Source: a virus
Virus record (IMG/VR): IMGVR_UViG_3300039351_000006
DNA length: 64,000 nucleotides
Reading direction: 5' to 3' (one strand)
Shown here: piece by piece, positions 1-64,000 of the stretch
How positions within the stretch are numbered: position 1 is the stretch's first letter
Layout of the letters: every line of letters starts with the position of its first letter
Program-made: the position numbers and the translations under genes
The notes under the pieces: model-generated
Seen by the model: the letters and a program-made list of their open reading frames with translations, nothing else
Told to the model about the DNA's origin: nothing
The model's database searches: none

Positions 1-1090
1 CCCAAGGCAAACCCTCTTCCTCAGAAATTTCTATCCACTTATCAACAAAGTTGATTTTACCAGTATCCTTGGTGTAAAAGTCAGCGATATTAATAGCGCA
101 CAAGCCACCTTTTTTAAGGGACTTGCGAATATTGCGAATAGTTGGTCTTACAAAGTTCTCCACCCAACCGTCAAGCTCAGAGTACTTGTTGTATGACTGT
201 GATTCTTCGGTTGAATACACTTCGCAGTTGAAGTACGGCGGTGAGGTGAAGCTGAAGTCAACCTGACCGTCAATACCCTCAATGTACTCAGAGCCTACAC
301 AGTGGATTTCCATTCGGTCGTAATCCACGCCCATGAAATTATTAAGGTCGTCTCTTAACTCATGAAGGTGGTAGCAGGTCTCCGTATTTGGGTCAGTACC
401 AATGTAGTAGAAATTTTTCTGGCTGGACATTGCACCCAGAAGCCTTCCACCAAAGCCCATGCTGGTGTCAAGAATCAAACCATTCTCAGGGCAGTACCTC
501 TCATAGATTGCCTGAGCATCAGTATTCTTAAAGTTGCTGGCACTACCACCAACAAGCCTTAGAGCAGAATACACCCTAGTAGGAATAGGGCTGGAACCTT
601 CTTTACCGTTATCAATGATAAAGCGAATAGCTTGCTTAAGCCATTTGCGGATGAAGAACTTATCATACATGCTGCCACGGTCAGCACCCTGCTGCTGCAC
701 CATGACCCTGTGAATGTTTGGGAAACGCCAGTTCTCCCACATACGACCGATAGAATTATTCTTCACATAATTACCGTTAAAACCAACAGTATTATCGAAT
801 ACCCTATTCAACTCGTTGTAAGTGCCGAACTCGCTGTAATACAGAGTAGGGTAAATACCCCTATCCAGATAAATATCTGCGATTTCATCAAGGGCTTTAT
901 CTCTATCTTCAGGAGCGAAGCTATTATACCACGCCTTGCTATACTTATCAAAGTCTACATCATCATAACCGGTAGAAGTTTCTTGACTCTCTGGGCACTC
1001 ATAATTCCAAGAGAAAAATCCACCATTATCACCCTTTTGGCGAATTTCTTCTTCAGACACTTCTGTAGCAAGAAAAGGCATCATTGACAT
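1..1090 (-). CDS. DNA methyltransferase (N6-adenine/N4-cytosine type), 5' part only; gene runs off the window edge
   Basis: Minus-strand translation from ATG at ~1084-1090 gives a SAM-binding motif FGGRLLG followed by the SPPY catalytic motif (D/N/S-P-P-Y/F); absent from ORF track because no stop lies inside the window. Confidence 0.7.
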   Translation of the reverse strand, partial: MSMMPFLATEVSEEEIRQKGDNGGFFSWNYECPESQETSTGYDDVDFDKYSKAWYNSFAPEDRDKALDEIADIYLDRGIYPTLYYSEFGTYNELNRVFDNTVGFNGNYVKNNSIGRMWENWRFPNIHRVMVQQQGADRGSMYDKFFIRKWLKQAIRFIIDNGKEGSSPIPTRVYSALRLVGGSASNFKNTDAQAIYERYCPENGLILDTSMGFGGRLLGAMSSQKNFYYIGTDPNTETCYHLHELRDDLNNFMGVDYDRMEIHCVGSEYIEGIDGQVDFSFTSPPYFNCEVYSTEESQSYNKYSELDGWVENFVRPTIRNIRKSLKKGGLCAINIADFYTKDTGKINFVDKWIEISEEEGLPW

Positions 1091-1111
1091 TAAAATTACT
1101 CCTGTATAAAC

Positions 1112-1381
1112 CTACTGCAACACCTTTTGAGAATTACCTAAACTTGGCAAAGAATTAGTATCACTACACATGCCATCCACGCTCACCGAACAATCTGTAT
1201 CAAGCAATTTAGGGCCATCACTTTTCAAAATTCTACTAGCGAGATTGGGGTCAAAATTAGGATTAACATACTGAGTACTCCTCTCTGGAATACCCGGGTT
1301 GTCCTCCTCTCTTGACATCCTCTCAGCCAGAGACTCTTCCTCTGACATGTCTTTACCCTGCATATTTACCAAAAACACCAT
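1112..1381 (-). CDS. hypothetical small protein
   Basis: 89-aa ORF co-oriented with flanking genes. Confidence 0.35.
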   Translation of the reverse strand: MVFLVNMQGKDMSEEESLAERMSREEDNPGIPERSTQYVNPNFDPNLASRILKSDGPKLLDTDCSVSVDGMCSDTNSLPSLGNSQKVLQ

Positions 1382-1803
1382 TTCTAACTCCTAACGACTT
1401 TTATTCATGTTACCACAAATCATGAGCTCGTTTCTGAATATTCATTTGATTCCTTAAAGCCTCTGAACCCCTAACAAAAAGACCGGAAGCAATCAAACTC
1501 TTCCTAGTAGCCACTGCACAATGAAATACCTTGTACTGATACCCTATGTAATCCATTGGAGCAAAACACATTTCAATTATTGCACCCTAATGCTATAATA
1601 CAAAATCTTATACCTACCATCAGAGTAGTTAGCCTCTTTATAGAAAGTTATACACTCAGAATGTAACAACTTTTCTATTTCACTAACCGTAATGCCACCA
1701 TGACGCATATAAGACCTGCTCATTAAATAAAAGTAGCAAACTTTTCCCAGAGGCCAACCCAATACGACATAGTAATAATTTGGATTAATCAAATCTTTTC
1801 TCA

Positions 1804-3987
1804 TCAATCCACACTACCTTCATAGGTCTTCTTATTACCGGTTGTATCGTGACGTTCACCACCGGTTGTTGTACCAGACAGAGCGGTACCTGGAATAGCA
1901 TCAGCAGCTGTACTGTTTCCTTCGACCTCACATCCAGCCTCAGAATTAGCACACCTACCAGCGGTACCAGCCAAATCCTGCGCACTCTGACCGGAAACAG
2001 TCTTATTATCAGCAGCCTTCAATACCCTGAAGTAGAGCGGGTCTTTCAACTTATTAGCCATATAAGAGCTGCCCCAGATAATATACTTCTCAGTGATAGC
2101 AGTAGCAGCAGTCCAAGTCTCAATCTTACCCGTCTGACCTGGCTTCAAAGTGACACTGTCTTTAAGACCAAAGACGTTACCAGTTCTATAAGTAGGATTA
2201 CCACTATTATCACTAAGAGTGCTATCATCACCAAAAGTGACTTCATTACTACCCGTATTAGTAATGGTGAACACCATACCAACCTGAATAGAATTAGACC
2301 TCACATCGAAACCACGATTACGGGAATCCTTAGTCTCATACCATTTAATGGCATCGCCACCCACCCTAAATTCGGTCAGCGTCACATTAAGTGGATTATC
2401 AACCGGCTTTCCATCCTTGTCTTTTCCTGGCTGCGTGTAGTTAAGTCGTGTACCAACAGTGGCAGGATTATCAAAACTACCATCACCCTTTTGAGGAATT
2501 ACCTTAGTCTTACCAGAAAGCAGACGATACGTACCAACCCAAGTTTTATCAATTACCCAGCGGTCTTTAACCAAATCAGTTAATACATTCTTCTTATGGT
2601 CAGCCAAATCCTTCTTCTCGTCAGGAACCGGAATACCCTCGACGGTTGTACCATCATCAAGTTGCACACCTGGCTTATTCGGGTCAGAATCCTTTAAAAC
2701 AGTACCGTCCTTAAGCTGAATACCCTTGATGTCTGTATCATAATCATAAATCTGCAAACCATCATGTTGCGGGTCAACATCCTCAAAATCCTCTTTCTTA
2801 GTCTTTGAGGAGTCTTGCTCATCTTTACTGTCTTTGCTAGCGTCTTTATCACCATTGTCTTGATTTTGCGCGGAAGCACTACCGTCCTTACTGTCAGTAT
2901 TCCCGTCCTTATTCTGCCCGTTATTGCTGGCATCTTTACCATCTGTGGTCTTCTCCTGTGGGGCGTCAGAACCCATGCCAGAGGTGTCTGAAATATCCTT
3001 AATACCAAATACCTGCTTAGTAGTGTTTTCATCCGCTTGACCACCGGACATTAGATACAGCTGGTTTTGGAAGTCATTCATGCAGTTAATAAAGTCATCA
3101 CTACTGAAAAGTACTTTATCGAGGTATTCATCTTCCGCCACGCTAGCTGAATACCCTGCTGCGCCCTCGGAAATCATTTCATTCTTAGAAATTTGCTTTG
3201 TTGTCCTTAAACCAGTAGCCTGCTTGGTGATAATTACAGCCCACTCTGCGAAAATCTCAGCACTATCAATGTTGTAGCTAACACTATTAATACTGTTAGT
3301 ATAGTCATCCAGAGAAGGCTCTTTGTCATCAGACGTGCTGGTATTGCTACTGTCTTTGCTGGCTTTATTTTTGGCAGTGTCTTCGGCCAGCTTGTCAACT
3401 TTCCAAGCTTGAATAGCCTGCTGAATATCAACCCTATTAACAGGCACCTTAGACCAATCCAGAGTTGTTCTAGCCAAGGTGATGTTATCCTTGTTTAAAT
3501 CTCCTTGACGCTTTTCACCCTTATTGAAAAGACCAGTCTCTTCCACTTGCGGCAAACTGTATTCCGTCTTGGCAAGCACGGCCTTTTTCATTTTCGCATA
3601 GATAGGGTTATCATTATTGTAGGAGATTTCTTGGTACAAATACCCCTTGTTGCCGGCTTCGTTAGCGGTTGCCAGAGCATCGAAAGAACCACTCTGCACT
3701 AGGGAACTCCAGCTATTATAAGCGTCTTGAGCGGAAACACCGTTCTTATTGCCGGAGGACTTCTTCACGACCACCATAACGATGAGCAGAGCCACAACAG
3801 CGACTATTGCCACAGGAACAATCCAAATCTTGGATTTTTTCTTTTTCTTGTTTTTGGCAGACACCTTTTTATTAGGAGACTTTTTAACCTGATTTACAGG
3901 CTTTTCCTCTTTGGGTTGCTCCTGCTTAAACGCGGTAGGCAAACCAGTATCCCCAGCATTTTGTACTTTTCCACCACTCACACGCAT
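1804..3987 (-). CDS. membrane-anchored protein: Lys-rich N-terminal tail, one TM helix, long acidic low-complexity D/K/S/N-rich linker, C-terminal globular domain
   Basis: 727-aa ORF; hydrophobic stretch IWIVPVAIVAVVALLIVMVVV after KKKKKSK; D/K/S/N-rich repeats. Confidence 0.6.
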   Translation of the reverse strand: MRVSGGKVQNAGDTGLPTAFKQEQPKEEKPVNQVKKSPNKKVSAKNKKKKKSKIWIVPVAIVAVVALLIVMVVVKKSSGNKNGVSAQDAYNSWSSLVQSGSFDALATANEAGNKGYLYQEISYNNDNPIYAKMKKAVLAKTEYSLPQVEETGLFNKGEKRQGDLNKDNITLARTTLDWSKVPVNRVDIQQAIQAWKVDKLAEDTAKNKASKDSSNTSTSDDKEPSLDDYTNSINSVSYNIDSAEIFAEWAVIITKQATGLRTTKQISKNEMISEGAAGYSASVAEDEYLDKVLFSSDDFINCMNDFQNQLYLMSGGQADENTTKQVFGIKDISDTSGMGSDAPQEKTTDGKDASNNGQNKDGNTDSKDGSASAQNQDNGDKDASKDSKDEQDSSKTKKEDFEDVDPQHDGLQIYDYDTDIKGIQLKDGTVLKDSDPNKPGVQLDDGTTVEGIPVPDEKKDLADHKKNVLTDLVKDRWVIDKTWVGTYRLLSGKTKVIPQKGDGSFDNPATVGTRLNYTQPGKDKDGKPVDNPLNVTLTEFRVGGDAIKWYETKDSRNRGFDVRSNSIQVGMVFTITNTGSNEVTFGDDSTLSDNSGNPTYRTGNVFGLKDSVTLKPGQTGKIETWTAATAITEKYIIWGSSYMANKLKDPLYFRVLKAADNKTVSGQSAQDLAGTAGRCANSEAGCEVEGNSTAADAIPGTALSGTTTGGERHDTTGNKKTYEGSVD

Positions 3988-4009
3988 CTAAGTAATCTCC
4001 TAAATAACA

Positions 4010-4693
4010 TCAAATCATATCAGCTGTCAGTGAAGCGAACAAGTCAGCCGCTTCAGGGTCGGAATCAGCAGCATCCGATTCTCCACTAGAGGAATACCCG
4101 TTGCTGGGTACTTCTTCACCGGAATCGTCCTCAACGTCATACATTCGATATGAAGATTCTTCCTGCGGATTTTCCTTAACTTGGATTCCCAGATTCTTAA
4201 GAATACTACTACCTGATTCAGGCTGCTCTTCAGGTTTCTCCTCTTTTTGAGATGCAACGTTAACTTTGCCACTTTGCAGCAAGGAAAGCACTTCGTTGAC
4301 TTTGGAAGCAATATCAGACACCTGACCGGACAGATTAGTGAACTTGTCTTTCAGGTCTGAAATACCCTCTGGCGGTATGCTTTCTTTCCCTTCTGTTGGG
4401 GAGATGTCCTGTATCTTGTCTTTGCCGACAGCAAGCTCGTCGTCCAGATCGCCCAGACCCAAATCAAGAGCACCAATAGCAGCATTTAGAGAATCAAGCT
4501 CAGCGCTCCAATCACTGACCGCCTTCTCACGAGCCGTCTTATCAATGAAAGCCTTCACTGTAGTACTTTTATGATACAGATTAAAGCTCTCATAAACCAG
4601 CTGAGCTAGAGTATGATTTTCCTTAGCCGGCAGAATTACATCCTGATATAAGTCATCAGGTACATCCACCAATAACCTAACCTTATGCCCCAT
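4010..4693 (-). CDS. acidic hypothetical protein
   Basis: 227-aa ORF overlapping the upstream gene end by 11 nt (operon-like). Confidence 0.5.
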   Translation of the reverse strand: MGHKVRLLVDVPDDLYQDVILPAKENHTLAQLVYESFNLYHKSTTVKAFIDKTAREKAVSDWSAELDSLNAAIGALDLGLGDLDDELAVGKDKIQDISPTEGKESIPPEGISDLKDKFTNLSGQVSDIASKVNEVLSLLQSGKVNVASQKEEKPEEQPESGSSILKNLGIQVKENPQEESSYRMYDVEDDSGEEVPSNGYSSSGESDAADSDPEAADLFASLTADMI

Positions 4694-6488
4694 GATTCTC
4701 TCCCGTACCTACTTGAGTTGCAATCCAAAGATTTGACTTGCCATCTTTCTCAGATTCTTCTTTATATACTGTTACTGAGTCTTTCAACAACTTTTTACAA
4801 TTGTCCAGCACTTTAGAGTCAGGGTTCATAATATGCCAATTCACCTTCATCCACGTTTCAGGCATATTATCCCTAAACAGACCACCCAGATTAGCCAAGG
4901 TAGAACGCATACTAATTTTAATACCCCTGGAGATGACAGCATTTCCAACGGCCACCTGACAAAGCCTCTTAAACAACATTCTACGAATATGACTTCCAAG
5001 GCAACCCACGCTAATTACCACGTTATAACCAGAGGTATCAAGCTCTTCCAAGCGCTTTTCCCAGTTGATATTCATGAGCCAAGCCTCGTTAACATAACCC
5101 AAACCAAGGCTGAGAACTTTCATACCTGGCTGAGCGGCAACGCAAAAGTCAGTGATATTACCACCGTTCACGAGCCACGAAATACCCTTGCTTTCGGAAA
5201 GCTTTACACCCATCGCATGCATGTAGTAATCCATGTATGTGTCAGTACTAAGCTCTACAAGCAGCACTTCTTTACTTTGCGTAAAATGACCCAAAGAAAA
5301 CGCGTCATCACCTGACAGACGCCTTAACTTGTACCCAAGCAGTATTTTACTTCTAAGATATTGCGCAACAAATTGATTGTCACCCTCTGCACCACTTGCT
5401 AAAACCATTACGTGTTGCGCAATATTGCCACTATATTTGGGTAGCAACACGGGCTCTCGTGCAGTGCTCTTCGAGGCAAGAAAAGCCCAATTCGTTCTAT
5501 CTATTGAAACGGTTGCCTTGCTCTCATTCAAACGGCTTTGATTGAGAATTGTAAGACTTTTATCTGCATCAGATAAACGCTTCTCATACTTCTCTTTTTC
5601 AGCGGAAATCTTACTAACCTGATTCTTGGTCTCTTGCAGAGCGCGAAGAGCCTCATCCCTTTCGGAAGTCATCTTTCCAAGAGCCACTTGGCTTGACTGA
5701 TAACTACTCTGCACTGCTTGCAATTCGTTTAACTTAGATTCAAGCGACCTACTATATTCCTGAGAAGCAACAAGCTGGCTCTGAATACCCTGGGTCTTTT
5801 GCTGCTGGTCATAAATCCCCGAATTGGCTTCAACCAGTTGACGCTTAACACCCTCAAGCTCGGCTCTGGCGGAAGAACTTGTGTTCTTTTCATCCTGCAA
5901 TAGATTATTCAGACGAGCAATCTCTTGGTCTTTGCCAACCAAGGCAGTGTTAACCCTATCCAAGTCAGACTTCACATCAGCCAAAACACCCTGCTGCAAA
6001 GTGTACTGCCTCTTAATACCCGAGAGGGTTTCCTCCAGCTGTCGAATCTGCGCCTTCAACTCAATGTTTTCAAGGCCTGCGTCAACACCAGTACTGTAAT
6101 TAGTGCTAATACTACTAGGCTGATAGCCAACATCATAATTATTAATGACAGGAGCGCTGACTTTCACTTCCACCTTGGAGCCCAGTTTGTCATTGATCCA
6201 ACTCACCAAGCCCTGGTCATCACCGGTGTACTTGTAGTACTTTCCAGTATTTTTAATGGCGTTGCCACTTTTACCGTCAAGATACGCATCATTGCTGATG
6301 GCATACACCACCACAACAACTCGCGTATCCCTAACAGCATCAGCCGCAGACAGGTTGGCCTCAGAATCATTGCTAGGGGTAATTATAGTATAATTACCCG
6401 CTCCGAAAGAGGAACTTAGACCCTCAGCTATATATTCCTGAACCTGCTCAGGAATACCCATGCATACCGCTTTGACCTGCAACGCCAT
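4683..6488 (-). CDS. large coiled-coil protein (central heptad-rich segment), unknown function, immediately downstream of the actin-like ATPase
   Basis: 601-aa ORF; long Q/E/L-rich helical segment; TAA stop. Confidence 0.55.
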   Translation of the reverse strand: MALQVKAVCMGIPEQVQEYIAEGLSSSFGAGNYTIITPSNDSEANLSAADAVRDTRVVVVVYAISNDAYLDGKSGNAIKNTGKYYKYTGDDQGLVSWINDKLGSKVEVKVSAPVINNYDVGYQPSSISTNYSTGVDAGLENIELKAQIRQLEETLSGIKRQYTLQQGVLADVKSDLDRVNTALVGKDQEIARLNNLLQDEKNTSSSARAELEGVKRQLVEANSGIYDQQQKTQGIQSQLVASQEYSRSLESKLNELQAVQSSYQSSQVALGKMTSERDEALRALQETKNQVSKISAEKEKYEKRLSDADKSLTILNQSRLNESKATVSIDRTNWAFLASKSTAREPVLLPKYSGNIAQHVMVLASGAEGDNQFVAQYLRSKILLGYKLRRLSGDDAFSLGHFTQSKEVLLVELSTDTYMDYYMHAMGVKLSESKGISWLVNGGNITDFCVAAQPGMKVLSLGLGYVNEAWLMNINWEKRLEELDTSGYNVVISVGCLGSHIRRMLFKRLCQVAVGNAVISRGIKISMRSTLANLGGLFRDNMPETWMKVNWHIMNPDSKVLDNCKKLLKDSVTVYKEESEKDGKSNLWIATQVGTGENHGA

Positions 6489-6546
6489 GAACGCACCTAC
6501 CTACAAAACAAGGTGGCACCTATTATGATGCCACCTTATTACTATT

Positions 6547-7755: not shown

Positions 7756-7837
7756 AGCACCGCCACGAACGCTAATTCATTAATATGTTACCAGATACAC
7801 ATTGAGCTTGGATAAAAATTCATATCCAACTCTTAAT

Positions 7838-7910
7838 ACTTTCTAACTAAAAATTTTCCAATTCTTCTACATGTTAATAATTCCTAACCAGACTATAATA
7901 CTTTCTAACC
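7838..7910. repeat. two direct copies of TAATACTTTCTAAC in the DHH-ParM intergenic region (candidate centromere/promoter repeats)
   Basis: Exact 14-nt repeat ~59 bp apart, upstream (in minus-strand transcription sense) of the ParM-like gene start at 7755. Confidence 0.35.
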
Positions 7911-7917
7911 AGCAAAA

Positions 7918-9573: not shown

Positions 9574-9584
9574 TGACCACTACT

Positions 9585-10076: not shown

Positions 10077-10078
10077 GA

Positions 10079-55691: not shown

Positions 55692-56191
55692 TCTGGCAAA
55701 ATCTTCATGCGTCGTGGGGCATACTCAAACTTATAATAATCATCAAATTGACTTCTCATTCGGGTAAGCCTCTTCAAATCACTAGTCTGGAAATACCCGA
55801 TGTGCAGAGTATTCTAACTCCTATTGATGTAATAGAAGTTATTCCCAATACCCTTGTCGTAGAAACTAACAGTATTGCCGTCGATGAAGTAATCAAAAAT
55901 TGGTTTATTTAATACCCTCTGAATGATTCTCAACTCTTTTGATACACTGAAGTCAGTGAACACCGTATCACGACGAAGAACCTCCGCAACGGAGAGATTA
56001 AACTACATTCTAAAGTAATCCTCATACTTAGGCAAAGCCATGTAATCCTGAGGATATTTTCCCTTAGACATGTATCCTTCCAAGTCAGAAGTGCTTACAG
56101 TTTGAATACGACCTGTACTATACTTAAGCCAAACGATGTATTTATCATCAAGTGAAATTACCTTATCAGTATCCAAAATACGCAGTGGCAT
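55692..56191 (-). pseudogene. coding-like stretch interrupted by two in-frame TAG codons (56003-56005 and 55814-55816)
   Basis: One minus-strand frame reads 62 aa, TAG, 62 aa, TAG, >40 aa with no other stops; only the first segment (56003..56191) appears in the ORF track. Confidence 0.35.
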
Positions 56192-56271
56192 TGGACATCC
56201 TTTCTACAAATAGAGGGCATACACCCAAAAGTATATGCCCTCTATTATACTAGAACTTCTACAAATAATGA

Positions 56272-57495
56272 TTACTCTTCTGAAACGACCTGAATAACGC
56301 CGGTATTATCGTCGTCATCGTCAGACGGAATACCCTGCTCCTGCGTAGTATTCACGAGAGCGGCGAGGCCATCATCTGTGGCATCAGACTTGCCGGCATC
56401 CTCCACGATACTAGACTTATCGTCGGAATCCGAGTCTTCCGGTGTGTCTTGCGTATTCTTGATGGCTGTAGGCTCCAAGTCAGGCACGTCATACTTCTTA
56501 GCCGACTCGACGCTGAGAGCATCAACAGCCAGAGAAGTCTCACGATAGCTCTGCATATCCTCAGCCTTCTGAATACCACCAATCGAAATAGGAGTGTAAG
56601 CCTCATCCTGTAGAACTTCCACAGGCTTAGTCTTCTCCTCAATGGACTTCAGCATTTCCATGGCCTTGGAATACCCGTCTTCCAGCTGAGAGTGCATCTC
56701 ATTCACAGCGGACAGAACAGAATTGACATACTCCTTATATTCGGTGAAGCCGGAACCAAGCTTCTCGTTGGCGACATCCTGCTGCTCATTGCCCGCCTTC
56801 ATGAGGGCATCATACTGATTAGCAGCCCGCATAAGCAGCTCAGCAGAGTTATGCTTGGCAGTTTCGACAATACCCTTGGCCTTGTTCTGAGCGTCCTTCA
56901 TGGTGATTTCAGCACGCTTTGTTGCGGAATCTTCAATAATTTGAGCAGAGTTACCAAGAGTTGCCCAGAGGTTACCGTCATGAGCCTTCTTAGCTTCTTC
57001 AAGCAAGCCCTCCAACTCAGCGATGCGAACCTTCAGATGCTCATCGGTGCTATTTTCGAGCTTCTCAATCTCCATCTTCTGAGACTCAACCTGCGCACGG
57101 AGAACGCCCTCATCAGAAGAGGCATCAAGAATACCCCTGGCCGTCTCTTTTGCGGCCAGCTTCTCCTTAAGGGCGGCAATTTCTGCGTCCTTCTCTTGAA
57201 TAGTCTTGATGCTATTCTGGTTTTCAGTATTCAGCCGAGTAATTGCTTCTGTTGCCTTGGCCGCTTGCTCTTGTAGCGCCTTCACGTCGGATTCACCGGA
57301 CGAGTAGGCTTGCAAATTGGCCTTAAGCTGAGCGTTCTCATTACGAAGGTCAGTGACTTCCTTATTCCGAGAAACCCATGCCTTATCAATATAATCAATA
57401 AAGGCCTCAACCTGGCCCTTATTATAACCGTTAAAAGCATTCTCAAAGTTCATCTGCTCTGAGAATGTCGTTGGCGCATTAGACATAATATCCAC
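56272..57495 (-). CDS. DivIVA-domain coiled-coil protein
   Basis: N-terminal FENAFNGYNKGQVEAFIDYIDKAWVSRNKEVTDLRNENAQLKANL matches the DivIVA N-domain pattern; long coiled coil; acidic C-terminus. Confidence 0.6.
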   Translation of the reverse strand: MDIMSNAPTTFSEQMNFENAFNGYNKGQVEAFIDYIDKAWVSRNKEVTDLRNENAQLKANLQAYSSGESDVKALQEQAAKATEAITRLNTENQNSIKTIQEKDAEIAALKEKLAAKETARGILDASSDEGVLRAQVESQKMEIEKLENSTDEHLKVRIAELEGLLEEAKKAHDGNLWATLGNSAQIIEDSATKRAEITMKDAQNKAKGIVETAKHNSAELLMRAANQYDALMKAGNEQQDVANEKLGSGFTEYKEYVNSVLSAVNEMHSQLEDGYSKAMEMLKSIEEKTKPVEVLQDEAYTPISIGGIQKAEDMQSYRETSLAVDALSVESAKKYDVPDLEPTAIKNTQDTPEDSDSDDKSSIVEDAGKSDATDDGLAALVNTTQEQGIPSDDDDDNTGVIQVVSEE

Positions 57496-57856
57496 CTATC
57501 TACTTGCTTGTCTAACAAACACCACCAGTATACCAGATATTACTACAACAAAATAGAAAATGGGTGGTTACATTCAAACAAATGCAACCGCCCAATGCTA
57601 TGATTTCAAATGGCCAACTAGCAGAACGCCGAATAATTCTGCCAAAACCCAGTATAGCACAATATTATAGAACCAGCAAGCAATACTTACTATCTAAATT
57701 ATCTTTTTATAATACTTCCAAACCAAATAAAGATAATTATAATCTATAAAATTACCATATTTAGTAATTAAGAACCAAAGATAAATACTTTATAACCAAA
57801 ACAGAAACAGTGCCAATTATACAATTGGCACTGTTTATATTATGCTCCGAATACTA

Positions 57857-58476
57857 CTAGAAGTAGTATGACGAGGACAAACCAAAACCCCTAATCAACT
57901 CCAGCGCTGTCAAAGCCAAAATGACAATACTGATAATCATACCGGCGGTGGCAAGACCTTTACCACGTTCATTAATACCCTGTTGGGCTTTCTCAGCAAT
58001 CTCTTTTCGTGCCAGAATACTGAACACCAAACCGGCGATACTCAGCAAACCGAAGAACGACAGCACGAAACCGGCAATTGCTTTACCATTCCATTTGTCG
58101 GTTGAAACGGGCTGCTGATAATACCCAGACATAGGTGGTTGCTGATAAGGCTGGGTAGGCTGCGCGCCATAACCATTCTGCTGGTAAGACTGAGCATAAC
58201 CCTGCTGCGCCTCAGGCATCTGAGGCTGAGCGTAACCGGCGTTCTGAGGCTGCTGATAGCCCTGCGTTGCATCAGGTTGCGGCTGGGCGTAACCAGTGTT
58301 CTGCGGCTGGGCGTAACCAGTGTTCTGCGGCTGCGGATAACCTTGCGTGTTATCCGGTTGGCCATAGCCTTGCTGCTGTTAACCTTGTGTATTATCAGGC
58401 TGGGCATAACCTTGCTGCTGCGGCTGCTGATAGCCCTGACCAGACGTAGTATAGCCTTGCTGTTGACCGTAACCAT
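57857..58476 (-). pseudogene. Q/Y/P-rich repeat N-terminus + two-TM C-terminal domain (DUF4190-like), interrupted by an in-frame TAA
   Basis: Repeats QPDNTQGYPQPQNTGYAQ...; at ~58380 the repeat reads QG-TAA-QQQGY where GY is expected (TAT to TAA); C-terminal TM helices AIAGFVLSFFGLLSIAGLVFSIL and GMIISIVILALTALELI. Confidence 0.45.
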
Positions 58477-58549
58477 AATTGTTAGGCGCGTTATTAAAAT
58501 CAGTCATACTTTCTCCTTTTTAAGTTGACTTTTCAAAACATGAAAATGC

Positions 58550-59254
58550 TTAACCCTCTTCACAAGTGCCACTATAAGTACCGCCCGCCAATTCACAAAC
58601 AGCCCTTAAACCCTTATCCCTGACACTTGGAATATTCTGCAAAGCCTGAACCCTGTCTTTGAAACTCTGAATACCCTGAGCAGCTTGCAAAGCAGCGTCA
58701 TCTTGAGCCTGCTTCTCAGCTTGCTCAGCTTTCCGCTTTTCTTTCTCAACATCAGTTTTCTTGGCATTTTGGGAGGTTTTAATACTCTCCAGCAACTTGC
58801 TTATAGAGTTACTAACGGTATTAATTGCATCTTTATCGTCGCTTTGCATAAGGCCATCAACAGTACCCAACAAAGCTTGCAAGTCGGACTTATAGTGCTT
58901 GTCAGCATCTTTTAGCGAGTTTTCATCCAGACTATTGTAAATACCCTCTGCTTGATCTCTAACGGCTGAGAGGGCGTTCTTGGCGTCAGCCAGAGGCTTA
59001 GCTTTCTTCTCCTCGTCTATTCGAGTAATGCAGTTGTTTATTCGGGAGAGCACTTTTCTCGCTTCAGCCACCCTGGAATTCTGCCTATCCACATCAACGG
59101 AGGACATTGTATAGTATTCACTCTCATCTGAGACAGCCATTAAATCTAATTTACTTTGCAAGCTAGTCAACTCGGTAGCAGCTTTGCTATTCGGTACGGC
59201 GGTTTTCAAAGCCTCAGCTGCTTTTTGATTGGTTGAATCAATATCCTTTTGCAA
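58550..59254 (-). CDS. coiled-coil hypothetical protein with Cys-containing C-terminus
   Basis: 234-aa ORF. Confidence 0.5.
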   Translation of the reverse strand: MQKDIDSTNQKAAEALKTAVPNSKAATELTSLQSKLDLMAVSDESEYYTMSSVDVDRQNSRVAEARKVLSRINNCITRIDEEKKAKPLADAKNALSAVRDQAEGIYNSLDENSLKDADKHYKSDLQALLGTVDGLMQSDDKDAINTVSNSISKLLESIKTSQNAKKTDVEKEKRKAEQAEKQAQDDAALQAAQGIQSFKDRVQALQNIPSVRDKGLRAVCELAGGTYSGTCEEG

Positions 59255-59259
59255 GGACT

Positions 59260-59463
59260 CTATATTTTCTTAGAGTTATTTATCTCCGAGGCGCTTGCTT
59301 TTCTACTGAGGCCAATACCCGAATTCAGGCCGGTGTAAACGTAGTAATTAATCCCTACGGTTATTCCTAAGAATATCAGGAAAACCAGCAGGATCACCAC
59401 GTTTTTCTGTTTGTGGGTTAACTCGGAATTTACAGGCTCTTCCACGAAATCAGTTGAGGTCAT
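59260..59463 (-). CDS. small single-TM protein
   Basis: 67 aa. Confidence 0.4.
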   Translation of the reverse strand: MTSTDFVEEPVNSELTHKQKNVVILLVFLIFLGITVGINYYVYTGLNSGIGLSRKASASEINNSKKI

Positions 59464-59471
59464 GACTTCCC

Positions 59472-60002
59472 CTAATCAATATGAGATTCCAAGGCCTTCA
59501 AACTACTCATAGGCACTTGATTAAGACCCGATTTAATGTCGTTTTCCAGCAATTCCAACCTTGACTTGGAGAGCATACGCCAGTCTGAAATACCCCACAT
59601 TTCCACATCCGTAGGGCCTTCCACTTCAAATGTTTTAGAATACTGAGGATAATTACTGAACGCCTGGCAACCCGTACTCAAGACACCTTTGTCTGCAATA
59701 CCCATGTATTTCTCAGCCAAAGACATGGCATTCTTATCCAAGCAAGCCCTAGAGTAATATTTAACAGACTCATAGTCTCTTACGCGGATGTAGGCAGACA
59801 GCAATTTGCCGTTCTTCCATACCAGCAAGGCCTTAGCCAAATGATTCCAAGGTGTTTCACCACCCTTGTAACCGGAAATTTCAAGACCCAGAATTACACC
59901 ATTTTCAGGGGTCAGATACAGCATATTTACTCCTAGTCTACTGTGAAGCCGGACATTTGCTGCAGGAACGGGATAGTACTTGTCGCCCAAGGATACACCC
60001 AC
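59472..60002 (-). CDS. hypothetical protein
   Basis: 176-aa ORF; start may be an internal Met because the first 70 nt overlap the sortase gene. Confidence 0.45.
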   Translation of the reverse strand: MGVSLGDKYYPVPAANVRLHSRLGVNMLYLTPENGVILGLEISGYKGGETPWNHLAKALLVWKNGKLLSAYIRVRDYESVKYYSRACLDKNAMSLAEKYMGIADKGVLSTGCQAFSNYPQYSKTFEVEGPTDVEMWGISDWRMLSKSRLELLENDIKSGLNQVPMSSLKALESHID

Positions 60003-61153
60003 TCAAACAACGCAGCTACAGCGGCCACAACCAACGCCATGAAAATGAATACCCGTATTTGCTTCACCCCTGGCAACGTCTTCCAAACCATACCGTAGAA
60101 ACTGCCTGTTCCTCTTCTACGGAAATCAGGCCATCTCCATGCAGCAGCTGCAGCAATGTACAAAACCACAGCAACTATTATAGAGATAACGGCGACTTTA
60201 TCCAAGTTAGGTATTTTACTGATTACGTTAGAGGGCAGCATTGAGAATGAGGTATCAGCCACTTTACCGTTATCATCCAGTAATTCCTTGGGAACACCGT
60301 CACTTACCTTTGCCCAATAATCAAACTTACCCCACACGATAAGCCTCTGCACAGGATATGTATACTTAGGCCAACAGGTAGTAAGAGTTATATACCTATC
60401 AACAGGCTGAGCGTTGGGGTCATTAGGCACTGGTGCAATAACGTCAATATCGTTAGGCGTTGTATACTTATTACTAGTAACTTTGTAGACATACCAATAG
60501 TCTTTAGTTCTGACTACCAGAGCATCACCTTTTTGCAGCTTGTCGTTATTTCCACCTGGTGCACCGTATCCGTTAACGTGGCCAGCTATTGCAAAGTTGC
60601 CTTTTTCTCCTGGCATTTGCGTCTCAGCATAATGACCATAGCCGTGCATATCAAGCTGGCCTAAACCCGTACCTTGGACAATGTTTCTTACCCAGCCTTT
60701 ACCTGCTCTTGGCATGTAGATTTGACCGATTAAATCTGAGGTGTTAGCATACGTAGGCTGCACTGGAGGCTCACCGGTTTGCGCAGGTGCCACCTCTTGA
60801 CTCTTCTTATCAGAAACAAGAGTCATGTTATTTTTATCTGCCTCCGCAGCCTGATTTTTCGCCGCCAGAATACCCGTCCAGCCCACCTGCCAGACCACGT
60901 AGAGTATGACAACCAAAGCAGCTGTGAAGATTAGCTCTGTGACACCTCTTAAAGCTGTTTTCCTCTTGGTGCTTTTGCCGTACTTTTGGCGCTCTCTTAA
61001 CTCACGTAATTCTCTGCGTGTTAGCGGTGTCGAGTCAGACAATTCCAGCACGTCACCCATTGTTGTTTCAAAAGGCGAGGACTCAGGAATACTGCTACTA
61101 CTCCGAGCTTTTCTTGTATGCCTGGTTGCCTCTTGTTTTACGTGACGTGCCAT
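59933..61153 (-). CDS. class E-like sortase (transpeptidase) with N- and C-terminal TM segments
   Basis: Catalytic His context GNFAIAGHVNGYGAP, catalytic Cys in ITLTTCWP (TLxTC) with the conserved Arg in QRLIVWG; basic N-tail + TM; two C-terminal TM helices. Confidence 0.75.
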   Translation of the reverse strand: MARHVKQEATRHTRKARSSSSIPESSPFETTMGDVLELSDSTPLTRRELRELRERQKYGKSTKRKTALRGVTELIFTAALVVILYVVWQVGWTGILAAKNQAAEADKNNMTLVSDKKSQEVAPAQTGEPPVQPTYANTSDLIGQIYMPRAGKGWVRNIVQGTGLGQLDMHGYGHYAETQMPGEKGNFAIAGHVNGYGAPGGNNDKLQKGDALVVRTKDYWYVYKVTSNKYTTPNDIDVIAPVPNDPNAQPVDRYITLTTCWPKYTYPVQRLIVWGKFDYWAKVSDGVPKELLDDNGKVADTSFSMLPSNVISKIPNLDKVAVISIIVAVVLYIAAAAAWRWPDFRRRGTGSFYGMVWKTLPGVKQIRVFIFMALVVAAVAALFEWVYPWATSTIPFLQQMSGFTVD

Positions 61154-61164
61154 TACTCTAATCC

Positions 61165-61452
61165 TTACTCAGCGCTTACAGTCTTCATACGAGAAATTAC
61201 TTGATTTTGAATATTCTCAACAATCTGATTGCTGGTCATACCCGTAGTATTCACGCGATGATTCATATCAGTCAAATACCAAGAATTGTCTTCCCCGTTA
61301 AAAACCTCCATGTTGAGGGAATACCCCTCCTCTTCTTCTTTGTTGTCTTGATACGGCGTTAAACTGGCTTTAACAACCTTGTTGTACTGCGGCAGGAAAG
61401 TGGTCTCACACTTCCTGATTGCTTCGATTATATCTTCCTTCATACTAATCAC
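61165..61452 (-). CDS. hypothetical protein
   Basis: 95-aa ORF. Confidence 0.4.
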   Translation of the reverse strand: MISMKEDIIEAIRKCETTFLPQYNKVVKASLTPYQDNKEEEEGYSLNMEVFNGEDNSWYLTDMNHRVNTTGMTSNQIVENIQNQVISRMKTVSAE

Positions 61453-61660
61453 CTATAGAATCTTTAATAGCGGCAGTTTTCCTACTCAATCTTGTCTTCA
61501 AGCGTCTATTACCTCTATCTTGAGGACTTGCCGCACTACTCCTTCTTAATTCCAACATATCCTTGGCTAATTAAGGATTAGCCAAGGCGTAATTCTTCTT
61601 CTTTTTCATAACAGCATCAAATATTAAGTATACTAATAATTAATATAAATCTTCATAGTA

Positions 61661-62224
61661 TTACTTATCCGAATTACTTTTCAAGTAATCTCCAGCCCTG
61701 TTAGTTAAACCTAATTTGTTACCGTCAACAACAAAAGTACCTTCCTCATATTTGCCATTTAAAAGGTATCTGGCATCCTTATAATTGAGCCTACTGAAGT
61801 CATTAGGCGTAAAAGTTGCATCACAAGAATCATAATACGTGTTTCCATAATAATTTTGATTCTTGCACTTTAAATTAGATATGCCATACACAGACTCGAC
61901 TTTTGCGGTGAAGCTAACCGGCTCAGACGCTTCAGACGTATAAGACGAAAAATAGGCTATATTTAATCCAGTGAGTATAAGAGCAAAAATAGCGATTACA
62001 CACCACGCAATAACCACATTTACTTTGCCGCTAAAGGTCTTCAAATAATCTATAGGATTAATGTCAGCAATAACCTTAACGGTATAAGCAGCAACACCTA
62101 TGGCAATGATAGCTATTATTACAGTAATCGCCCAAAACCTAGGATTACCATAGGCAGTGGAAACCGAAATATCAATATCGCTATGAGAATTCCAACTGTT
62201 CAGATAATCAGAAAAGTCAACCAC
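61661..62224 (-). CDS. membrane-anchored hypothetical protein
   Basis: 187 aa, two TM helices then a soluble domain. Confidence 0.45.
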   Translation of the reverse strand: MVDFSDYLNSWNSHSDIDISVSTAYGNPRFWAITVIIAIIAIGVAAYTVKVIADINPIDYLKTFSGKVNVVIAWCVIAIFALILTGLNIAYFSSYTSEASEPVSFTAKVESVYGISNLKCKNQNYYGNTYYDSCDATFTPNDFSRLNYKDARYLLNGKYEEGTFVVDGNKLGLTNRAGDYLKSNSDK

Positions 62225-62237
62225 TACCCTATCCTAT

Positions 62238-63104
62238 CTAATCTACTTTCTCAAAACTGGCGTCTTTGTAATTGATTGAATACCCGTTGGCGTAATTATA
62301 TACGACCACGTGCTGGTCGATGCTACCATCACTTGTACGAATATCTACAGTTACTACACGAGGCAGTAATTCTTCGCCAGTGTAAATAGGAGTCGCTACG
62401 TACTCAATGCTACCACTCCTGTTGGCGTTCAACCAATCACGGGCTTCCGTCTCTGTGAAAGCCATGCCACCCGGTTCTGCGGTGGAGTTCTTACCGACAT
62501 TCTGTGTCCTTGTGCCAGTAATCATATTCTCAGCAGTGTCTTCCCCACCCAGAGACTTGGCAATCAGGTGCGACTTATTATACATCCAACCATGATAACA
62601 ACTATTCCTAGGCTGCTGATTCTTAGGCAAAGAACAGGTATCAGCAGCAGTCAGATTAATATAGACTTCAGTGTTCTTAGCAGGATAACCGGTAATTGTA
62701 GAGGGCATGTCCCTATCCCTGAGACTACCGGACTTCATTAAAGTGTACGTGATAATACCCTTGGCTTGGACACTTCTGCCTAGACTGTCAGGCGCTGTAT
62801 TAACCACTTCACCAATTTCAGGCATGTCCGAAGGTATCTGCGCTTTACCCGTTACACTGTAATAGTTAGGGTATTTATCCAAAGACCACTGGTAATCAGG
62901 CTCTTCGCCCTCATTATTGGAGGAGTCAAACCACTTATTTACCCTGTCTTTGGCGTCTTCCCAAATGTCATTGGCTTTCGACTTGCCCTCTTCTTTTAAT
63001 TCACCTACGGTCATGTTATCAATGTCTGAGGAACATGCAGTGAGAGAGAAAGCCATGACACTAGCCAATATAGCGGATAATACCCTAGAGGCGCGCATTT
63101 CCAA
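62238..63104 (-). CDS. lipoprotein with DNA/RNA non-specific (EndA/streptodornase-like) nuclease-like C-terminal domain
   Basis: Lipobox SLTACSS after a signal peptide; SHLIAKSLGGEDTAENMITGTRTQNVGKN resembles the (D)RGH-LIA...GG...N...QN core of NUC-family nucleases. Confidence 0.45.
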   Translation of the reverse strand: MEMRASRVLSAILASVMAFSLTACSSDIDNMTVGELKEEGKSKANDIWEDAKDRVNKWFDSSNNEGEEPDYQWSLDKYPNYYSVTGKAQIPSDMPEIGEVVNTAPDSLGRSVQAKGIITYTLMKSGSLRDRDMPSTITGYPAKNTEVYINLTAADTCSLPKNQQPRNSCYHGWMYNKSHLIAKSLGGEDTAENMITGTRTQNVGKNSTAEPGGMAFTETEARDWLNANRSGSIEYVATPIYTGEELLPRVVTVDIRTSDGSIDQHVVVYNYANGYSINYKDASFEKVD

Positions 63105-63154
63105 TCCTTTCTAAGAAAAAGCGTTGACAATTCTAAATTGTCAACGCTTTCATA

Positions 63155-63727
63155 TTACAGCTTCTTCACAGAGGAGCTTAAAGAATCCGTTACACTATCA
63201 GGCTCTTTAGTAGTGTTGCTAACAATTCTAGGTGTTGCCTGAGAATGCTTGCCAGAAGGTTCATTACTACCAGTCTTAACAGCCTTATTACTAAACTTGG
63301 GCAGCACCAAGACACACACCCAAGACATGAAGCCAACCAGAGCAATGGCTATGCCTACGTACATTACCCAATATTGCAGCTCTAAACCGTAATTCCAGAT
63401 GTACGCCAAACCGCCACCATACAGCCAGACGGCAAATCCGATTAGAATACCCAACCAACAGAAAATATCACTCTTAGTATCCCTACCGATGGTCTTAAGC
63501 CTACGCTTGGAGAAATACCCCAGAGCCACACCTGTGATAAGGAAGAATACACCCGAAAGGCAACCAACCAGAATCCTGGCCAGCCAGCCCTCAACGAGGA
63601 AACCAGCCGCAGACCACACCAACACGCTGGCAACGAAATAAACGAGCGTATTCACCGTGGAAACCAAAGACTCACTTCTTTTAGTGTTGAAAATTCCAGA
63701 ATACAAGCTACTAATATCAGTTAACAT
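63155..63727 (-). CDS. polytopic membrane protein
   Basis: 190 aa, 4-5 hydrophobic helices. Confidence 0.5.
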   Translation of the reverse strand: MLTDISSLYSGIFNTKRSESLVSTVNTLVYFVASVLVWSAAGFLVEGWLARILVGCLSGVFFLITGVALGYFSKRRLKTIGRDTKSDIFCWLGILIGFAVWLYGGGLAYIWNYGLELQYWVMYVGIAIALVGFMSWVCVLVLPKFSNKAVKTGSNEPSGKHSQATPRIVSNTTKEPDSVTDSLSSSVKKL

Positions 63728-63729
63728 TA

Positions 63730-64000
63730 TTTTTCTCCTTCAGATAGTTACCGGCACTATCAGTCAAACCGACCTTACTGCCGTCAACGACGACAATACC
63801 CTTTTCCACCTTCAAGTCCTTGATATACGAGACAGGGTATTTACCATCGGAGGGCAGGTGGTCTTTCATGTCTTCCACGCCCATTATGAAGTCGGTATCG
63901 TTATACCCGCTATTCGTGGAATAAAGGTCTTCAACGCCGAACGTGTTTTCAACGGCAGTGCTGAAGCGCTCAGGCCTGTCATAACTGTTAGCCCTGATTA
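63730..64000 (-). CDS. 3' end of a further minus-strand gene running off the window
   Basis: Open minus-strand frame from the window edge down to ~63730. Confidence 0.35.

Follow-up and report, generated by a model that had tools for sequence, protein, structure and literature searches.

The element carried by the window

In the window, by which we mean the whole 64,000-nt stretch of DNA analysed here, 84 of 96 greedily called ORFs lie on the minus strand, those on the plus strand being mostly overlapping or spurious, and the GC skew stays between -0.09 and -0.32 throughout. The gut element from which it comes measures ~235 kb (contigs of 207-240 kb) at 44% GC. Elements of this family are abundant in human gut metagenomes, where one contig reached 770x coverage. 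An earlier reading of the letters alone (the first-pass annotation) had framed the DNA as that of a phage with virion DNA. This framing was not upheld: no capsid, terminase or portal was recognised among the window proteins, and gene content and order make the window a relative of pXO16 (pBTHD789-1, NC_018516.1), a conjugative megaplasmid of Bacillus thuringiensis sv. israelensis with which it is syntenic, rather than a recognisable phage.

Twelve window ORFs have pXO16 homologues by blastp, with two collinear blocks (Table 1). Common to both are a UvrD-like helicase, a RecJ-like and a ParM-like protein, SbcCD, an AAA ATPase, an ArdC/IrrE-like protein, an endonuclease and an FHA-PP2C-kinase, at a protein identity of only 24-34%. 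Like the window, pXO16 carries its genes on one strand (454/454 features) and has a uniform GC skew, but it is a 350-kb Bacillus plasmid of 33% GC, whereas the window element resides in a gut Gram-positive host. The UvrD/PcrA-type helicase served as the family marker gene for finding relatives, and its homologues were found on 150-400 kb contigs as well as on pXO16; the gene order of the first block (helicase, two unnamed genes, DHH, MreB-like) is repeated in relatives L018 and L019. Conjugation machinery (tip locus, FtsK/SpoIIIE ATPase) was absent from the 64-kb window and its 20-kb flanks.

Table 1. Genes, non-coding block and copies of the repeated word in the window.
Feature	Position	Strand	Basis or content
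727-aa protein, ParM/actin-like, RecJ-like DHH, helicase, 210-aa protein	1804..16181	-	syntenic with pXO16 308-336 kb (blastp, Pfam, PHROG)
UvrD/PcrA-type helicase	12031..14154	-	Pfam UvrD-helicase, UvrD_C; 7 motif copies
ORF-free block, G/T-rich on gene strand, iteron-like repeats	30800..32600	-	motif at 30979, 31590, 32172, 32572
AAA ATPase, SbcD-like, SbcC-like nuclease subunits	44337..49522	-	syntenic with pXO16 30-38 kb (blastp, PHROG)
GGGTATT, 158 copies (AATACCC on +)	1..64000	-	exact count
GGGTATT, 5 inverse-orientation copies	13184, 14830, 42501, 62869, 63835 (span 13184..63841)	+	exact count
AATACCC starts, 272-15960	272,798,854,1289,2021,2632,2719,3150,3639,4093,4361,4920,5181,5784,6015,6453,7087,7189,8045,8077,8629,8813,8982,9154,9316,9392,9821,9993,10319,10712,11633,11676,12083,12378,12434,12820,13123,13680,13852,14628,14841,14990,15579,15618,15960	+	
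AATACCC starts, 16049-31590	16049,16321,17027,17266,17643,17724,18273,18370,18730,19118,19928,19972,20516,21747,22297,22739,22834,23114,23127,23956,24574,24631,24694,25062,25441,25840,26441,26862,27289,27940,28545,29361,29532,30106,30979,31590	+	
AATACCC starts, 32172-48665	32172,32572,33214,33777,33914,34315,35113,35581,36133,37056,37281,37486,38239,38289,38776,38828,39626,39658,39917,40308,40899,41657,41842,42651,43080,43732,43867,44119,44972,45160,45815,46320,46643,47252,47737,48138,48344,48665	+	
AATACCC starts, 49170-63795	49170,49370,49832,50171,51075,51459,52278,52912,52932,53439,53913,54093,54312,54520,54724,55356,55792,55847,55911,56329,56670,56869,57130,57974,58120,58670,58940,59314,59589,59697,60048,60869,61320,62279,62754,63079,63446,63514,63795	+	

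GGGTATT is a strongly selected, strand-specific word

Exact counting over the whole window gave 158 copies of AATACCC on the plus strand against 5 of its complement GGGTATT, and 173 against 7 for the hexamers ATACCC and GGGTAT. Markov models of order 0, 1 and 2 predict 7.4, 5.7 and 8.7 copies of AATACCC; the over-representation is ~20-fold, far beyond a 2-fold departure from expectation, and the word ranks first among all 7-mers both in z-score (about 50-55) and in strand asymmetry. The hand tally of the first-pass annotation (about 150 ATACCC, with about 5 heptamers expected) had thus come close, while its expectation of about 16 hexamers was too low (about 20-28) and GGGTATT, which it had found essentially once on the plus strand (~42495), occurs there five times. 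With ~2 such copies predicted from composition alone, this is chance level or a little more, so that the inverse orientation is neither enriched nor avoided. The length of the word is exactly seven, since each of the 21 one-mismatch variants has at most 13 copies; among 8-mer extensions of GGGTATT in the window none stands out. An orientation bias of type III restriction sites (T7/EcoP15I type) was rejected on the strength of the over-representation and the presence of inverse copies.

The preferred Gly and Ile codons of these genes are GGT and ATT, and the strand has a strong GC skew, both of which would suit a word without function that merely follows from mutation bias, codon usage or dipeptide content. 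We give this explanation practically no credence, and the data refute it. The word lies in all three phases, with 76 copies as xxG-GGT-ATT (Gly-Ile), 31 as GGG-TAT-T (Gly-Tyr) and 33 as xGG-GTA-TT (Arg/Gly/Trp-Val-Leu/Phe), and a further 18 copies fall outside minus-strand ORFs, which makes 2.5 copies per kb of coding and 2.2 per kb of non-coding DNA. Four of them sit in the ORF-free block, showing that no coding sequence is needed for the motif to occur. When synonymous codons were shuffled with proteins and codon usage kept, 19 ± 4 copies arose against the 138 observed in coding sequence, where the word occupies 138 of 201 synonymously possible sites; the Gly-Ile dipeptide is itself inflated 1.86-fold in the window. 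The one-mismatch variants stand at background, and sites persist among relatives as described below. Selection therefore acts on the nucleic acid and not on peptides or codon usage, as the first-pass annotation had argued from the same mix of phases and non-coding copies.

On the minus (gene) strand the copies follow each other at a mean spacing of 405 bp and more evenly than by chance (CV 0.62 vs 0.99 for random placement, z = -4.8). Close pairs are depleted, the largest gap is 1231 bp where about 2256 would be expected, and every window gene of at least 250 aa contains at least one copy. In relatives of 56% nucleotide identity, 18 of 43 sites were kept compared to 5% of generic 7-mers, an 8-fold higher persistence. 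The sites are thus under purifying selection individually, with turnover, and GGGTATT is a real, strongly selected, orientation-dependent signal that gives the DNA a direction. We found no account of the word in the searchable literature, which agrees with the failure of the first-pass annotation to match it to any described element.

GGGTA is the family-wide core of the word

The word of pXO16 is W-GGGG-TA-K, which has the core GGGTA in common with the window word. GGGGTA occurs 658 times on one strand of pXO16 and 5 times on the other, or 1 per 530 bp, with 13-26 forward and 0-1 reverse copies in every 10-kb bin of the whole circle; no strand switch or GC-skew flip was found anywhere on its 349,599 bp. 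This uniform polarity fits a unidirectional process. As in the window, spacing is even (CV 0.71; largest gap 2071 vs 3773 expected) and coding copies far exceed the synonymous shuffle (494 vs 99 ± 8). Unlike in the window, ~90 copies double as Shine-Dalgarno sequences. In the accessible pXO16 reviews we found no mention of the word.

On pBtic235, a plasmid of the same strain as pXO16, GGGGTA occurs 7 and 6 times per 50 kb where about 8 would be expected; because this co-resident replicon lacks the enrichment, the signal belongs to the element and not to the host. Besides pXO16, the core is common to six further clades. GGGTATT was counted 74 vs 3 times by strand in relative L002 and 34 vs 0 in L003, and GGGTA 20 vs 1 in L004, 10 vs 2 in L005, 79 vs 5 in L018, 102 vs 9 in L019 and 50 vs 4 in L020. 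GGGTATT is hence the local version of a polar, element-specific word whose core GGGTA lies on the gene-carrying, G-rich strand throughout the family, that is, in every sampled member of these 150-400 kb pXO16-like elements. They span 32-49% GC and probably have different hosts.

Possible readers of the word

Among the roles entertained in the first-pass annotation, a signal of replication polarity is the best reading of the data; nicking or modification, and recognition in transcripts, are conceivable but unsupported. The annotation had also named a Chi-like role. In such a role a helicase-nuclease, either host AddAB/RecBCD or element-encoded, would read the word on one strand and switch from degradation to repair, so that broken forks or rolling-circle tails would be protected, acquisition of CRISPR/Argonaute guides limited or the DNA marked as self. 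Like Chi, which is over-represented on leading strands and active in one orientation, the word is short, polar, G-rich and over-represented on the G-rich strand; its spacing in the window and pXO16 is of a coverage type without long gaps, and the element has UvrD-like helicase, RecJ-like and SbcCD-like genes. Chi is, however, a property of host RecBCD/AddAB that is enriched across host replicons, whereas this word is confined to the element, with GGGGTA at expectation on pBtic235 and the GGGTA core running through elements of very different GC content. The Chi of B. subtilis, AGCGG, is not enriched in pXO16 (83 vs ~147, a hand-computed order-0 expectation), whose annotation has no AddAB/RecBCD-type nuclease-helicase; and known 7-8-mer Chi sites are ~ten times sparser than 1 per 0.4-0.5 kb, while the family word is 97-99% strand-pure. 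We regard a Chi-like signal as unlikely, its host version being unsupported by the one co-resident replicon of the cultured relative. Quite unlikely, in our judgement, is also that the word orients a DNA translocase pumping one way only, be it host SpoIIIE/SftA or an ATPase of the FtsK/SpoIIIE family from the conjugation (tip) locus, and perhaps takes the place of a classical oriT. KOPS, SRS and other architecture-imparting skewed oligomers that give motors their direction are likewise G-rich polar 7-8-mers with GGG (GGGNAGGG, GAGAAGGG), but they occur ~once per 10 kb and the family word is 20-30 times denser than KOPS. pXO16 encodes an FtsK/SpoIIIE-domain protein, and its relaxase and oriT are not known (PMC9673590). 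In this protein Pfam recognises the motor domain PF01580 alone and no FtsK gamma domain (E <= 0.01), the domain by which KOPS and SRS are read; gamma domains read duplex DNA, whereas pXO16 transfer is reported to be single-stranded (PMC6199540). KOPS and SRS flip at origin and terminus, but the pXO16 word keeps one polarity round the circle without converging on a dif-like point, and it is absent from pBtic235, which shares its sporulating host.

A transcription or RNA signal, which we consider about as unlikely as a Chi-like one, would be recognised on the non-template strand within the transcription bubble, where it would act like a sigma-type -10 element or an ops-like antiterminator loading site, or else as GGGUAUU in the mRNA, keeping RNA polymerase processive or marking transcripts across hundreds of co-oriented genes. 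The word does always lie on the non-template (sense) strand, the genes all being co-oriented, some pXO16 copies serve as Shine-Dalgarno sequences, and pXO16 GGGGTAG is similar to GGTAG, the core of the ops element of RfaH. Known ops-type factors, however, need one loading site per operon, and pausing is expected from dense -10-like elements. The sigma-B-type -10 hexamer of Firmicutes, described for instance in PMC9847131 and PMC5641562, is identical to GGGTAT and also read on the non-template strand, but the window copies are intragenic, roughly two per gene, randomly positioned with respect to gene starts and even along genes. A sigma-B-type promoter was not supported, as its GTTTAA -35 element, 12-15 bp upstream of GGGTAT, is missing in the window (GTTTAA at 0% of sites; GTTT at 10.1% vs 11.7% of random positions), nor is anything else conserved upstream, the information staying below 0.08 bit at every position between -50 and -12 of the window sites. 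The base after TA also varies by clade, being T in the gut clade and G or T in pXO16, and the sites have no RNA or DNA hairpin context. We see very little prospect for a reading in which a non-palindromic methyltransferase modifies the word on one strand, or a site-specific nickase such as the ParB-HNH protein cuts it there, to provide a self mark or distributed start points of transfer or replication. The word is non-palindromic, an N6/N4 methyltransferase-like gene with an SPPY motif lies just beyond the window start, and pXO16 has a ParB_N-HNH nuclease. That methyltransferase has no homologue in pXO16, which nonetheless has the word; hundreds of nicks per molecule are hard to square with a stable low-copy plasmid; and neither activity explains the enrichment, the saturation of synonymous sites or the even spacing.

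We tentatively propose instead that GGGTATT is a priming signal, placed on whichever strand unidirectional replication or conjugative transfer renders single-stranded and read by a DnaG/T7-type primase of the element. The gene strand would be exposed as ssDNA, both as the displaced strand or lagging-strand template of a unidirectional, rolling-circle-type replication and as the strand entering the recipient, and the word would offer a start site for second-strand synthesis at least every ~1 kb. Copying 5'-GGGTA-3', whose 3' base would be cryptic, such a primase would make the primer pppACCC. T7 gp4 primase sites, 5'-GGGTC-3' and 5'-TGGTC-3' (primers pppACCC and pppACCA), are likewise G-rich pentamers with GT and a cryptic base, and GGGTA is GGGTC but for the cryptic base; it shares the pattern 5'-GTN-3' with these and with the T4 site 5'-GTT-3'. 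By inspection it fits the template type 5'-(N)nGTN-3' with a pyrimidine start and a purine-initiated primer, a matter of compatibility, not proof. As in T7, the proposed reader would combine a CHC2 zinc ribbon and Toprim primase with a DnaB-family helicase and a family A polymerase: pXO16 encodes a stand-alone DnaG-type CHC2 zinc ribbon (PF01807), a Toprim_2 protein, a DnaB-like helicase, PolA, a clamp loader and RNase H. The gut element would have to encode such a primase as well; none was found in the window, its 20-kb flanks or the 20-kb loci of the relatives, and a database search with the pXO16 zinc ribbon matched the Bacillus clade only.

The DnaG-type primases known so far recognise 3 bases rather than 6-7, and T7 recognition covers essentially 3-5 bases where the window word is a 7-mer. 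In the genome of T7, the case studied best, these sites are neither enriched nor strand-biased (GGGTC 39 vs 55, TGGTC 79 vs 62 by strand), so that there is no earlier example of a genome moulded in this way by primase sites. The word lies on the G>C strand, conventionally the lagging-strand template, although this skew may stem from transcription or from the motif itself; and because all genes are co-oriented in every sampled family member, the polarities of replication, transcription and transfer are inseparable. pXO16 transfers ssDNA and has neither a known relaxase nor a known oriT (PMC9673590 and PMC6199540), and, according to the latter, other plasmids are mobilised by it only with a single-strand origin in the right orientation. 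Of the three ways known to prime a second strand, one is a primase encoded by the plasmid (PMC4595007). The single-strand origins (sso) of rolling-circle plasmids and ICEBs1 resemble the word in being orientation-specific, active on the displaced or transferred strand and devoted to second-strand priming (PMC4595007), but an sso is one structured region of 150-300 nt per element that is read by host RNA polymerase or primosome, whereas the word is a plain 7-mer repeated hundreds of times. A structured sso was not supported: folding of ±40 nt round the sites gave MFEs equal to those of control words (window -20.0 vs -18.2, pXO16 -13.1 vs -13.2 kcal/mol), as was the accessibility of the motif (P(unpaired) 0.38 vs 0.38-0.40).

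Going beyond the priming signal itself, pXO16-like elements may have acquired a 'private priming code', an idea we regard as doubtful, in which an element-encoded primase or another ssDNA-reading protein of replication or transfer evolved a 6-7-base specificity and the genome was rewritten to match, down to amino-acid choice, with a one-strand site every few hundred bases. The element's own DNA would then gain its second strand quickly, a service that competing DNA could not use, and word and reader would drift jointly from clade to clade (GGGTATT, GGGGTA, GGGTAT). If true, this would constitute a new class of genome-wide polar signal and explain why hundreds of genes all point one way.

As far as is known, a genome shows moving enzymes its direction mainly by short polar words, among them Chi, KOPS and primase triplets, and none known to us matches the present one in density, strand purity or cost to proteins, two thirds of the synonymous opportunities being used and Gly-Ile nearly doubled. 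To our knowledge, the relaxase, the oriT and the reason for the single gene orientation of pXO16 have been unknown for decades. The word ties this plasmid to a large family of elements, 150-400 kb in size and with hardly any annotation, and, as pXO16 is cultured and genetically tractable, its reader is directly testable there. It also provides a one-line detector for family elements in metagenomes and may supply an orthogonal priming or transfer signal for engineering.

Counts, spacing and selection of GGGTATT in the window

Exact counting bore out the strand-specific excess described in the first-pass annotation. Its tally of about 150 plus-strand copies of ATACCC became 173, against 7 of the complement GGGTAT, and the heptamer AATACCC occurred 158 times. 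GGGTATT, reported there as a single plus-strand copy near 42495, occurred five times, including one at 42501. Markov models of order 0, 1 and 2 predicted 7.4, 5.7 and 8.7 copies of AATACCC, close to the earlier estimate of about 5; the excess is thus about 20-fold (z of about 50), and AATACCC leads all 7-mers in both over-representation and strand asymmetry. The five inverse copies match or slightly exceed the chance expectation, and hence there is no avoidance of the opposite orientation. As the minus strand carries nearly all window genes, the sense-strand word is GGGTATT. The earlier statement that all genes are minus holds with this "nearly": at two places a plus-strand ORF is at least as long as its minus-strand alternative. 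Both plus-strand ORFs are motif-free in either orientation except for a copy at 46643, which makes them uninformative on motif versus gene direction.

GGGTATT is a sharply defined heptamer. On the gene strand, each of its 21 single-mismatch variants has 1-13 copies, and maximal-order Markov scores gave no 8-mer extension. The flanks are near-uninformative, and a longer motif or flanking consensus was rejected because we found just a weak A at -1 (44% in the window, 70% in pXO16) and a phase-dependent C at third codon positions. Folding of window and pXO16 sequences revealed no secondary structure, hairpin or sso-like context around the word, and such a context was rejected as its basis.

The copies are spaced more evenly than random, with a gap CV of 0.62 versus 0.99 ± 0.08 (below 0.76 in 0 of 5000 trials) and a largest gap of 1231 bp versus about 2256 bp expected. 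Close pairs are depleted, every window gene of at least 250 codons carries at least one copy, and no periodicity of 3, 10 or 11 bp was detected. Such spacing is that of a signal obliged to cover the molecule, not of a clustered binding array.

As the first-pass annotation had noted, the word uses all three codon phases of the minus-strand ORFs (76 copies as xxG-GGT-ATT, 31 as GGG-TAT-T and 33 as xGG-GTA-TT) and also lies outside them (18 copies). Its density is 2.5 per kb in coding and 2.2 per kb in non-coding DNA, and it is distributed evenly along gene length. Shuffling synonymous codons, which preserves each protein and its codon usage, left 19 ± 4 copies versus the 138 observed in coding sequence; 138 of the 201 positions that permit the word by synonymous choice actually bear it, and the Gly-Ile dipeptide reaches 1.86 times its expected frequency. 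A codon or dipeptide artefact was therefore rejected. Together with the use of all phases, these results imply selection on the nucleic acid, as proposed before, near saturation and at some cost for protein sequence. The IS110-type transposase gene holds a single copy in 942 bp and may be a later arrival.

A pXO16-like element and its relatives

Megablast found no near relatives of the window among deposited phages and plasmids. Pfam and PHROGs matched few of about 60 window ORFs, most of which have no family, and recognised no capsid, portal or terminase among them. PDB sequence searches with five ORFs returned nothing usable, and single-sequence AlphaFold models of two ORFs reached a pLDDT of 35-41. 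With the UvrD/PcrA-type helicase as marker, a phage collection yielded distant matches alone (22-30% identity), IMG/VR no match (nor with two proteins), GTDB species representatives none, and JGI metagenomes just three short loci. Human gut metagenome contigs of 200-240 kb, in turn, carry hundreds of helicase homologues; near-identical versions of window genes sit on 207-237 kb contigs, one of them covered 770x, and Logan and ENA assemblies hold hundreds of family contigs of 150-400 kb. As far as helicase-based scans tell, virus and plasmid catalogues seem to have missed the family.

L004, a metagenome locus with a distant helicase relative, led to plasmids of about 350 kb in B. thuringiensis, B. 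cereus and B. toyonensis. One, NC_018516.1, is pXO16 according to a figure legend (PMC6199540, Fig. 7). By blastp, twelve of the window ORFs match homologues in pXO16, arranged in two collinear blocks, and the FHA-PP2C-kinase cluster directly outside the window is present there as well. PMC6199540 and PMC9673590 describe pXO16 as conjugative and low-copy, with a single orientation for all CDS, and as "phage-like" in nature, yet without isolated phage plaques. They also state that the transferred DNA is single-stranded, that neither a relaxase nor an oriT has been identified, and that plasmids mobilised by pXO16 require a single-strand origin in the correct orientation. The window thus belongs to a pXO16-like element, a megaplasmid or phage-like replicon, and the phage nature assumed earlier is not demonstrated. 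The encoded sortase points to a Gram-positive gut host. At >300 kb, the "Hodor" gut megaplasmids (PMC12934698) are larger, and we found no link to the window's family.

Features of the window and of related loci (window coordinates unless stated)
Feature	Location	Strand	Remarks
N6/N4 DNA methyltransferase-like gene	1-1090; 12898-14091 in L009 (gut-clade locus reaching beyond the window start)		397 aa; SPPY motif; window starts inside gene
UvrD/PcrA-type helicase	12031-14154	minus	marker for relatives
Inverse GGGTATT copies	13184, 14830, 42501, 62869, 63835	plus	exact count, n=5
tRNA genes Gln-TTG, Met-CAT, Leu-CAA, Leu-TAA	18587-18658, 19523-19597, 20856-20938, 23690-23770	minus
Long plus-strand ORF	27956-28447	plus
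Long plus-strand ORF	46430-47206	plus	minus-strand alternative 46490-47191
IS110-type transposase	29773-30714	minus	phrog_4285, E = 2e-51; adjoins ORF-free block
ORF-free block	30800-32600		~1.8 kb; G/T-rich on gene strand
Repeats in ORF-free block	31911-32087, 32352-32383, 32503-32565		51-63 bp iteron-like direct repeats
Sortase	59933-61153
FHA, PP2C phosphatase, Ser/Thr kinase cluster	15257-22184 in L009; 54913-79000 in pXO16 (L011)
pXO16 region without ORF of at least 80 aa	40087-44525 in pXO16 (L010)		4.4 kb; between Toprim gene and SSB-like/SbcCD cluster

The ORF-free block, whose iteron-like unit is about TTGGnTAGGnAnTATTAT, may be an origin or regulatory region; neither GC skew nor motif polarity changes across it. 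In the pXO16 region lacking ORFs of at least 80 aa, modules of the form "CATAGA...TGTATGGTGT" recur many times, followed by hairpins rich in GC; the region resembles a series of sRNA genes or small transcription units. The FHA-PP2C-kinase cluster adjoins a giant Ig-like surface protein and is conserved between pXO16 and the gut clade. Besides the sortase, the window encodes a DivIVA-like protein, an SPFH protein and a CAP-domain protein of 912 aa. Taken together, the cluster and these window proteins point to a common module for cell surface and signalling.

The word across the family

Strand counts of the word in relatives of the window
Element	Description	Word	Gene strand	Other strand
L002	gut clade, 58% helicase identity	GGGTATT	74	3
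L003	gut clade, 58% helicase identity	GGGTATT	34	0
L004	36% GC, JGI metagenome collection	GGGTA	20	1
L005	36% GC, JGI metagenome collection	GGGTA	10	2
L018	further clade, same gene order	GGGTA	79	5
L019	further clade, same gene order	GGGTA	102	9
L020	further clade	GGGTA	50	4
pXO16	complete circle	GGGGTA	658	5

The word is a trait of the whole family, including the cultured, tractable plasmid pXO16, with clade-specific extensions of GGGTA (GGGGTA, GGGTAT(T) or GGGGTAC). The consensus around the complete pXO16 circle reads W-GGGG-TA-K, with 13-26 forward and 0-1 reverse copies in every 10 kb bin and no strand switch, and GC skew is positive throughout. Spacing is again even (CV 0.71; largest gap 2071 bp versus 3773 bp expected), all three codon phases are used, density is higher in non-coding DNA, and coding sequence holds 494 copies versus 99 ± 8 after synonymous shuffling. 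Codon-by-codon alignment of window genes with their L002/L003 orthologues gave 56% nucleotide identity; 18 of 43 window sites were conserved, versus 5% of generic 7-mers, and the other sites were replaced elsewhere, which maintains the density.

The word belongs to the element, not to the host: in pBtic235, a replicon of 235 kb from the B. thuringiensis strain that harbours pXO16, two stretches of 50 kb carry 7 and 6 gene-strand copies of GGGGTA with about 8 expected, compared with about 94 per 50 kb in pXO16. In agreement with the first-pass annotation, which could match the word to no described element, we found no relevant description of GGGTATT, AATACCC, GGGGTA or TACCCC in the searchable literature, which excludes the 2015 pXO16 sequence paper.

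Possible readers of the word

A Chi-like attenuator of nucleases, raised earlier, is unlikely: pXO16 shows no enrichment of AGCGG, the Chi of Bacillus subtilis, and in pBtic235 GGGGTA occurs at expectation, which speaks against a host nuclease. A signal in the transcription bubble or the RNA is equally doubtful. GGGTAT is identical to the -10 hexamer of sigma-B-type promoters (e.g. PMC9847131, PMC5641562), but window copies have no -35 or other upstream element and are unrelated to gene starts, and a sigma-B-type promoter was rejected for want of the -35 partner. For about 90 of the 658 pXO16 copies, a predicted start codon follows 3-8 nt downstream, and AGGGGTA there doubles as a Shine-Dalgarno sequence; only 3 of 157 window copies are start-proximal, without Shine-Dalgarno use. 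A ribosome-binding role, which accounts for about 14% of the copies in pXO16 but for no window copy, was thus rejected as general cause. Guidance of a translocase appears improbable, as Pfam detects the motor domain alone, and no gamma domain, in the FtsK/SpoIIIE protein of pXO16 (E ≤ 0.01). A modification or nick site, proposed earlier, is very improbable; the methyltransferase-like gene adjoining the window has no pXO16 homologue and is thus gut-clade-specific, which removes it as universal reader.

The best-supported mechanism, which we put forward tentatively, is that the word is a dispersed priming signal on an exposed single strand, read by the element's own primase. pXO16 encodes its own family A polymerase, DnaB-like helicase, stand-alone DnaG-type CHC2 zinc ribbon and Toprim_2 protein, as well as a clamp loader, RNase H, ligase and gyrase. 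The CHC2 protein is WP_000365721 and the Toprim protein WP_000389279. T7 and T4 primase sites follow the pattern 5'-GTN-3', which GGGTA matches, and the strongest T7 site is 5'-GGGTC-3' (primer pppACCC), from which 5'-GGGTA-3' differs at the cryptic base alone. Unlike the word here, T7 primase sites are neither enriched nor strand-biased in the T7 genome, which therefore offers no precedent for enrichment. Blastp, an HMM of nine zinc-ribbon proteins and phmmer with the Toprim protein detected no primase in the window, in its flanking sequence or at the loci of the relatives, and a database search that started with the zinc ribbon of pXO16 extended to Bacillus relatives alone, not to the gut clade.

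The uniform polarity round the pXO16 circle is compatible with a unidirectional process, and to that extent the replication polarity suggested earlier fits; because every gene in the sampled relatives points the same way, replication, transfer and transcription polarity are inseparable by sequence alone. Such a process would be, for example, rolling-circle-type replication and ssDNA transfer, in which the strand made single-stranded would need repeated priming; plasmid-encoded primases are a known priming solution (PMC4595007). The core GGGTA is common to elements of 32-49% GC from Bacillus and gut metagenomes, which points to a reader travelling with the element. There is a substantial chance, although short of even, that the word is something new, a private priming code.
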